A DNA stretch of 54,512 nucleotides from a virus (IMGVR_UViG_2529293142_000033); one strand, 5' to 3'. Numbered from the stretch's first letter, positions 16,114-16,423 are shown. Program-made: numbers and translations. Notes: a model not told the origin generated them from the letters alone.

Positions 16114-16189
16114 GGCCCTTTAGCTCAGTGGTCAGAGCGAGCGACTCATAATCGCCAGGTCGCTGGTTCAAGTCCAGCAAGGGCCACCA
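16114..16189 (+). tRNA. tRNA-Ile2 (anticodon CAU, ileX-like); tRNA-Met cannot be excluded by anticodon alone
   Basis: 76-nt cloverleaf: acceptor ggccctt/aagggcc, anticodon loop ctCATaa, T-loop ggttcaagtcc, CCA end; closely resembles E. coli ileX as recalled. Confidence 0.85.
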
Positions 16190-16190
16190 G

Positions 16191-16267
16191 CCGTCACTAG
16201 CTCATCGGGACAGAGCATCAACCTTCTAAGTTGATTGTGCGGGGTTCAAGTCCCCGGTGACGGTCCA
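16191..16267 (+). tRNA. tRNA-Arg (anticodon UCU)
   Basis: acceptor ccgtcac/gtgacgg, anticodon loop ctTCTaa, T-arm cgggg ttcaagt ccccg, CCA end. Confidence 0.8.
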
Positions 16268-16269
16268 GT

Positions 16270-16345
16270 GCCGACTTAGCTCAGCAGGCAGAGCAACTGA
16301 CTTGTAATCAGTAGGTCACCAGTTCGATTCCGGTAGTCGGCACCA
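16270..16345 (+). tRNA. tRNA-Thr (anticodon UGU)
   Basis: acceptor gccgact/agtcggc, anticodon loop ctTGTaa, T-loop ttcgatt, CCA end. Confidence 0.8.
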
Positions 16346-16348
16346 TAT

Positions 16349-16423
16349 GCGGGCATCGTATAATGGCTATTACCTCAGCCTTCCAAGCTGATGATGCGGG
16401 TTCGATTCCCGTTGCCCGCTCCA
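16349..16423 (+). tRNA. tRNA-Gly (anticodon UCC)
   Basis: acceptor gcgggca/tgcccgc, anticodon loop ctTCCaa, T-arm gggttcgattccc, CCA end. Confidence 0.8.

Follow-up and report, generated by a model that had tools for sequence, protein, structure and literature searches.

The window analysed here is a stretch of 54,512 nucleotides, a prophage that lies between zur and dusA and is integrated in dusA, and in which a lambdoid regulatory region is combined with a contractile-tail structural module. Directly behind its late-gene antiterminator Q, four tRNA genes are packed within 310 nt. The locus raises the question of whether all four are genuine tRNA genes, from which sources they were assembled, and what they might contribute to a prophage whose host already makes most of the tRNAs concerned.

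The tRNA cluster and its surroundings

ARAGORN calls four tRNA genes, all on the plus strand, and no others in the 54.5-kb window (Table 1). Their coordinates and anticodons are exactly those of the original prediction, with a cloverleaf called at each of the four positions, and the Rfam family RF00005 (gathering score 29) independently matches the same four loci with E-values of 1e-13 to 2e-9. All four cloverleaves are intact, every gene encodes its 3' CCA, and the spacers between the genes measure 1, 2 and 3 nt. In NZ_CP027550.1, of which the window is a mosaic relative and not a copy, a cluster of 100% identity bears the RefSeq/PGAP labels tRNA-Ile, tRNA-Arg, tRNA-Thr and tRNA-Gly, and E. 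coli 2015C-4136CT1 is the strain for which a cluster of 100% identity is on record with annotation. The four-tRNA cluster is a real, ordinary and already annotated module of many E. coli prophages, and as a mosaic variant of the ileZ-argN-argO cluster of Stx phages it is of a long-known kind.

Table 1. Features of the tRNA locus and the prophage end, with one homologous gene from a related phage (last line)
Feature	Position	Strand	Description	Evidence
Q	14975-15727	+	late-gene antiterminator, 250 aa	PF03589 E=9e-54, phrog_127 E=2e-108
Candidate pR'	15759-15786	+	candidate late promoter, TTGCAT-16 nt-TAAAAT	read by eye, inferred
tR'-type terminator	15830-15858	+	intrinsic terminator, GC-rich hairpin then U7	fold z = -2.7
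Promoter-like site	16056-16083	+	putative, TTGAGT-16-TATCAT	9/12, consensus scan
tRNA 1	16114-16189	+	tRNA-Ile2, anticodon CAU, ileZ type, predicted to decode AUA	ARAGORN, Rfam 71.3 bits
tRNA 2	16191-16267	+	tRNA-Arg, anticodon UCU, argN scaffold	ARAGORN, Rfam 55.7 bits
tRNA 3	16270-16345	+	tRNA-Thr, anticodon UGU, decodes ACA	ARAGORN, Rfam 69.8 bits
tRNA 4	16349-16423	+	tRNA-Gly, anticodon UCC, decodes GGA/GGG	ARAGORN, Rfam 63.0 bits
Structured element	16446-16538	+	11-bp long-range closing stem then U8	fold z = -2.7
Intrinsic terminator	16689-16715	+	canonical, before first cargo ORF	terminator scan and fold
Cargo block	16750-20411	mixed	5 ORFs in place of stx	ORF calls, Pfam, PHROG
Lysis cassette start	20413-21214	+	lambda-family holin and GH24 endolysin	PF05106 E=3e-20
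Integrase	52289-53386			
dusA	53475-54512			
UUU slot-2 homologue	L002:5032-5108 (PhiR47_1); also e.g. L114			

As had been predicted, the tRNA genes follow Q and a tR'-type hairpin with its run of U. Copies of Q that are 100% identical are annotated in RefSeq as antitermination protein, and a homologue of the tR' hairpin is annotated 'terminator' in phage Ayreon. The candidate pR' agrees with the consensus at 8 of 12 positions, which leaves it below the listing of the consensus scan; it lies ~45 nt upstream of the tR' hairpin, matching the expectation for a Q-dependent late promoter, and Stx2c/Stx2k phages, mEp460 and Ayreon share the 3' end of Q together with the pR' region at 94.5% identity. 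A further promoter-like site precedes the tRNA genes. The hexamer pair that scores best in 69 of the 104 related loci has the form TTGNNN-16 to 18 nt-TATTAT and stops 9-10 nt short of ileZ, and 933W annotates the corresponding site as a putative tRNA promoter, pT, whereas the putative site of the window lies 30 nt before tRNA 1.

Downstream of the cluster, the structured element with its long-range closing stem is, as judged from its modelled fold, a possible terminator of the tRNA unit. It matched no Rfam family, and when the flanks (15700-16800) were searched for known sRNAs at Rfam E <= 1, nothing came up but the tRNAs themselves and noise below threshold. The region 16093-16636 recurs with 94% conservation in other prophages that have the same cluster (H29/H30). 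The canonical intrinsic terminator that follows (z = -3.6; as stable in 0 of 200 shuffles) is paralleled in 933W by an annotated terminator that separates argO from stxA.

The original prediction placed a different cargo gene where Stx phages carry their toxin. Indeed there is no stx downstream, but what takes its place is a block of five ORFs instead of one gene: a 164-aa ORF, a Rha-family regulator, a reverse-strand 164-aa ORF, a sialyltransferase-like ORF and a GT9-family glycosyltransferase, with matches to phrog_6315, Phage_pRha, phrog_3983, phrog_4603 and PF01075. PADLOC gave no hits for a defence function in this cargo. The reverse-strand ORF (18308-18802, minus strand; 164 aa, 43% GC), whose family phrog_3983 is of unknown function, had no Pfam or PADLOC match and holds 8 AUA in 163 codons, the highest density in the prophage. 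Directly before the holin, two overlapping ORFs occupy 18941-20411, one matching phrog_4603 ('alpha-2,3-sialyltransferase') along with a weak MptE-like match, the other belonging to the GT9 (heptosyltransferase) family; going by these family assignments they could be a pair of surface-glycan-modifying morons at the site where Stx phages carry stx. The RefSeq annotation of relatives agrees with the assignment of the holin and endolysin that follow.

Several features elsewhere in the window were recorded alongside. Rfam gathering-level matches to isrK (9311-9387) and to C4 antisense RNA (9412-9499) are located within a 383-aa ORF (8951-10102) with Ash and Rha domains or upstream of it, and the arrangement looks like antisense control of the P1/P7 type acting on an antirepressor-like gene. 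At 7395-8068 on the minus strand, the repressor gene (ymfK/LexA-family, 675 nt in the relative) is found with 99.85% identity; in the window it is not one intact ORF and is split into 7395-7733 and 7802-8068, which suggests a frameshift or a sequencing error. Near the right end, 46908-51130 is extra DNA as compared with the closest annotated relative, and holds an IS21-type pair (a 513-aa rve/Mu-transposase-C protein and IstB), an IS3-type transposase pair on the minus strand and an AraC-family regulator (50300-51130).

Origins and distribution of the four tRNAs

The first gene is identical to ileZ of 933W at 74 of 76 positions (97%) and to the host ileX at 71 of 76 (93%), as compared with 69% identity to the elongator and 62% to the initiator tRNA-Met. 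Direct reading of its sequence reveals the acceptor pairs C4-G69 and C5-G68, which are determinants for TilS, and tRNA-Ile2 reads AUA once its C34 has been converted to lysidine by this enzyme. Because of the identity to ileX and ileZ, the two acceptor pairs and the label tRNA-Ile given by PGAP to the identical RefSeq gene, the CAU tRNA is to be regarded as Ile2 and not Met, as originally proposed. Five positions differ from the host Ile2, and one of these changes, U20a to C, loses a D-loop uridine that is a dihydrouridine site.

The second gene is further removed from the host. It is 83% identical to argN of 933W, which has the anticodon UCG, and only 70% identical to the host argU, and its Rfam score is the lowest of the four. 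The unusual combination of C1-G72 and U73 is common to tRNA 2 and argN, whereas the anticodon stem is UCAAC/GUUGA in the former and CCAGC/GCUGG in the latter. The ArgRS identity elements A20, C35 and U36 are kept, the anticodon being U34-C35-U36, and A20 is invariant across the argN scaffold and argU. A purine discriminator (A73 or G73) is missing from tRNA 2, which has U73 as do most variants of the argN scaffold; other UCU variants of the scaffold carry G73 or A73. No E. coli tRNA-Arg is known to have anything but A73 or G73, and argU, the sole one examined here, has G73. As tRNA 2 combines U73 with C1-G72 in place of the usual A73 or G73, its charging with arginine is not assured. A UCU anticodon decodes AGA and, by wobble, AGG.

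Over 19 distinct variants the cloverleaf of the scaffold is 98% paired and includes six compensatory pairs, of which U4-A69 of the window's gene is one, and the covariation score was reached in 0 of 500 shuffles. Given this covariation, tRNA 2 is a maintained tRNA, under selection as a tRNA. The argN scaffold is present in 1905 of 5426 complete E. coli genomes, and in different prophages the body in this second slot carries UCG, UCU, UUU or, once, GCG. The window has the loop CUUCUAA, that is UCU with U33, and the UUU form, called Lys, has the loop CCUUUAA, in which C33 replaces the near-universal U33; 24 of 25 copies of this form are identical in sequence (an example from PhiR47_1 is given in Table 1). 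Comparison of these variants indicates that slot 2 is an anticodon-switching, phage-only tRNA body.

The third and fourth genes, by contrast with this divergent scaffold, are near-exact copies of host thrU and glyT. The tRNA-Thr agrees with K-12 thrU at 74 of 76 positions, the only differences being U16C and U20C, both in the D-loop, and the tRNA-Gly agrees with K-12 glyT at 74 of 75, a single C-to-U change in the T-stem producing a G-U pair; the anticodon arms of both are exactly those of the host. Their order and near-identity recall the host thrU-tyrU-glyT-thrT (tufB) operon, but the host operon has tyrU, thrT and spacers of 8 and 116 nt, none of which is found in the cluster, where Thr and Gly are fused at a distance of 3 nt. 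In E. coli, Shigella, Citrobacter and Enterobacter alike, the fused pair lies in prophage-like surroundings.

At both positions where the tRNA-Thr departs from thrU, a D-loop uridine that serves as a dihydrouridine site is lost. The D20/D20a synthase is encoded by dusA, in which the prophage sits, and D-loop uridines have been lost from the prophage's Thr and Ile2 tRNAs; this is probably a coincidence, since those positions are also the least constrained.

The position of the cluster had been likened to that of ileZ-argN-argO in Stx phages, and the likeness was found to go beyond position. In 933W the order on the late strand is Q-pR'-tR'-pT-ileZ-argN-argO-terminator-stx; the window cluster occupies the same place, a promoter-like site lies upstream of the tRNAs in both, the first gene is shared and the second is built on the same scaffold, so that the correspondence is one of homology. 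The two loci differ in the anticodon of slot 2 (UCG in argN, UCU in the window), in the absence of argO from the window, which has the thrU and glyT copies instead, in the type of Q (250 aa in the window, 157 aa in 933W) and in the downstream cargo, which is stx in 933W and glycosyltransferase-like and unknown ORFs in the window. The Ile-Lys(UUU)-Thr-Gly clusters of E. coli prophages and phages (PhiR47_1, vB_EcoS-689R5) match the window cluster throughout its 310 nt at 94-95% identity and agree with it in gene order and spacing, but have UUU with C33 in slot 2 where the window has UCU with U33.

Other phages offer further parallels. The eight tRNAs of T4 include Ile-CAU, Arg-UCU, Thr-UGU and Gly-UCC, and the genes of the T4 cluster, too, stand close together with very little sequence between them. 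Matches in T4-like phages span 75% of the window cluster at ~82% identity, in three pieces, and T4 is virulent and AT-rich and has its eight tRNAs in another order and context; the likeness is one of individual tRNAs and not of a shared module. Genes for tRNAs downstream of Q have been described in SfI, Sf6, ST64T, PS3 and phage 21, where the same codon explanation was offered and ACA was found to be enriched in SfI, which carries tRNA-Thr(UGU) (PMC3636060). Those phages have one or two tRNAs (Asn-GUU and/or Thr-UGU), and not the present set of four.

At least 80% of the 310-nt cluster is carried by 603 of 5426 complete E. coli genomes (11%), and, besides E. coli 2015C-4136CT1, two genomes have the surrounding 1.6 kb at 99.4-99.5%. 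Among the 120 IMG/VR loci listed, ~66 have Ile-Arg(UCG)-Arg(UCU), ~25 have Ile-Lys(UUU, C33)-Thr-Gly, 12 have the Ile-Arg(UCU)-Thr-Gly of the window and ~12 have Ile-Arg(UCG), so that within this list the four-gene form with Lys is encountered about twice as often as that with Arg. In the GTDB set of species representatives, E. coli and Shigella flexneri have the fused Thr-Gly pair, with three four-tRNA clusters each, and Citrobacter braakii and Enterobacter hormaechei have it without the rest of the cluster. The cluster is a portable module: in strain JNE23-011 it is preceded by a different Q (123 aa) and followed immediately by the lysis genes essD/rrrQ, and in PhiR47_1 it stands behind the same type of Q but before a holin.

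Genomes with three separate copies, E. coli ECMA0423 (L135, L136, L140) and Shigella flexneri SFBU1023 (L134, L137, L138), mix the Arg(UCU) and Lys(UUU) forms of slot 2, and therefore a single cell can hold both variants in different prophages.

Codon usage and the possible role of the cluster

To relate the cluster to codon demand, 12,974 codons of the prophage were set against 27,214 of the host, drawn from 72 core genes of a strain in which an identical copy of the cluster is present; as the window is a mosaic, the annotation of the relative was unsuitable and gene coordinates were set on the window itself. All four cognate codons are enriched in the prophage (Fisher p 1e-5 to 3e-18): per 1000 codons, AUA is used 6.3 times against 2.8 in the host (2.3-fold), AGA 5.4 against 0.8 (7.0-fold), ACA 13.0 against 6.1 (2.1-fold) and GGA 10.0 against 5.9 (1.7-fold). 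The description of all four as rare in E. coli is accurate for AUA and AGA, whereas by these host values ACA and GGA are only moderately so. Ordered by enrichment, the cognate codons rank 1, 4, 6 and 10 of 61, for which the chance probability is 4e-4. The codons AGG, ACG and GGG are the wobble partners read by UCU, UGU and UCC tRNAs; they rank 2, 7 and 8, and when wobble is included, seven of the ten codons at the top of the ranking are read by the four tRNAs. The cargo block has the highest values in the prophage for AUA (10.8 per 1000, 3.9 times the host) and AGA (8.8 per 1000, 11.5 times the host), albeit from small counts of 11 AUA and 9 AGA in 1018 codons.

The late structural genes, which are 58-62% GC, have little need of these codons; the major capsid gene has 1 AUA, 0 AGA, 0 ACA and 4 GGA in its 350 codons and is host-like in this respect. 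Moreover, lambda, which has no tRNA genes, uses AUA 8.9, AGA 9.3, ACA 13.4 and GGA 13.0 times per 1000 codons. As the four codons are at least as frequent in a phage that lacks tRNAs, the correlation does not discriminate between explanations, and the enrichment was rejected as proof of need. It also counts against such a need that three of the four tRNAs duplicate ones that the host already makes and could change their dosage only. The supply of codons is a plausible and standard explanation, consistent with the data although not specifically demonstrated by them, and any benefit from it is probably modest.

With these reservations, the account that we favour, and consider somewhat better than even, is that the cluster forms a compact and portable module in the leader of the late operon, a mosaic of phage-lineage genes and host copies, which enlarges the pool of low-abundance tRNAs. 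It starts from what was observed directly, namely the existence, identity and position of the genes, their homology and the codon-usage correlation, and from these we infer a route of transcription, processing, charging and a benefit to fitness. The four genes would be transcribed as one polycistronic precursor, starting at the promoter-like site before tRNA 1 and/or at pR' after Q-mediated read-through of tR', and host RNase P and 3' exonucleases would cut the precursor into four tRNAs. These would be charged by the host IleRS (after lysidine-34 formation by TilS), ArgRS, ThrRS and GlyRS, and the outcome would be a bigger pool of four low-abundance tRNAs reading AUA, AGA(/AGG), ACA(/ACG) and GGA(/GGG), codons that are used 1.7-7 times more by phage and horizontally acquired genes than by core host genes.

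A variant that we regard as rather unlikely shifts the benefit from the late proteins to the uninduced lysogen, in which expression from the cluster's own promoter would ease the translation of AT-rich acquired genes in which AUA and AGA abound, the cargo among them. The promoter-like site is independent of pR', the terminator-like structures on both sides of the cluster could bound a separate unit, and it is the adjacent cargo ORFs that are highest in AUA and AGA, while the structural genes have little need of these codons. However, the putative promoter agrees with the consensus at only 9 of 12 positions and lies at an unusual distance from the tRNA, the excess in the cargo is drawn from the few codons counted above, and such a role in lysogeny overlaps with the favoured account and does not exclude it.

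A different proposal is that the phage tRNAs serve in counter-defence, replacing host tRNAs cut by nucleases (P2-OLD, PARIS, PrrC, retron effectors, colicin D) and so letting the lytic cycle finish. P2-OLD blocks lambda through destruction of the host tRNA-Thr(UGU), and the block is relieved by phage tRNA-Thr(UGU) variants with altered anticodon arms (PMC12445682); the isoacceptor under attack is exactly the one that the lambdoid prophage of the window encodes. Phage tRNAs that evade nucleases have likewise been documented for PARIS, retron effectors and anticodon nucleases (PMC10264068, PMC11464382, PMC11555353). In addition, slot 2 is a divergent scaffold found only in phages, its anticodon varies among UCG, UCU, UUU and GCG across prophages, and the C33 of the UUU form falls at the cleavage site of PrrC-type nucleases.

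Yet the tRNAs of the window do not have the hallmark of such evaders, because none of the four anticodon loops departs from its host counterpart, Thr and Gly have complete anticodon arms of the host sequence, and the tRNA-Thr retains the paired CUG/CAG motif that is cleaved by P2-OLD. The 27-43 pair of Ile2 and the stem of Arg are the only differences from the host in any anticodon arm, and the C33 variant belongs to relatives and is absent from the window. The protective phage tRNAs, both the tRNA-Thr against P2-OLD and the T5 tRNA-Lys against PARIS, have altered anticodon arms, and an extra thrU of host type gave little or no protection from P2-OLD (PMC12445682). Evasion of P2-OLD by the tRNA-Thr, whose arm equals that of host thrU including the CNG motif, was accordingly rejected for this window, and so was evasion through mutation of the anticodon loops. 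We therefore consider a role in counter-defence unlikely for the cluster as a whole.

The same idea can be narrowed to slot 2. Its body might be a chassis with exchangeable anticodons, marked by C1-G72 and usually U73, which evolved to be either nuclease-resistant or synthetase-tolerant and to stand in for whichever host tRNA has been depleted by enzymes that may be of the colicin D, PrrC or PARIS type; the UCU of the window would then represent one state of counter-defence and no simple codon helper. To this reading, too, we give little credence.

That the cluster is a neutral passenger, in which thrU and glyT were acquired from a host chromosome by illegitimate recombination and spread by lambdoid modular exchange without a selected function, is very unlikely. 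In favour of such a passenger are the 97-99% identity of its Thr and Gly genes to host genes, its location at a known moron hotspot and the success of lambda, which does without tRNAs at a similar codon usage. Against it, the loss of tyrU and of the 8- and 116-nt spacers has left a tight array with spacers of 1-3 nt, the four cloverleaves are intact with compensatory changes in tRNA 2, and 11% of E. coli genomes have the cluster, beside neighbours that vary. The tightness of the array, the intact cloverleaves, the compensatory changes and the recurrence beside different neighbours argue for purifying selection on the cluster.

The cluster shows lambdoid prophages shuffling a small cassette of phage-lineage and host-derived tRNAs at the moron hotspot behind Q, and such cassettes may modestly tune the translation of horizontally acquired genes in about one in nine E. 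coli genomes. Beyond its correct annotation the cluster matters little, and the only angle worth following is the variable slot 2; one tRNA body bears different anticodons there from prophage to prophage, and this could inform the debate on whether phage tRNAs serve codon supply or the evasion of defence.
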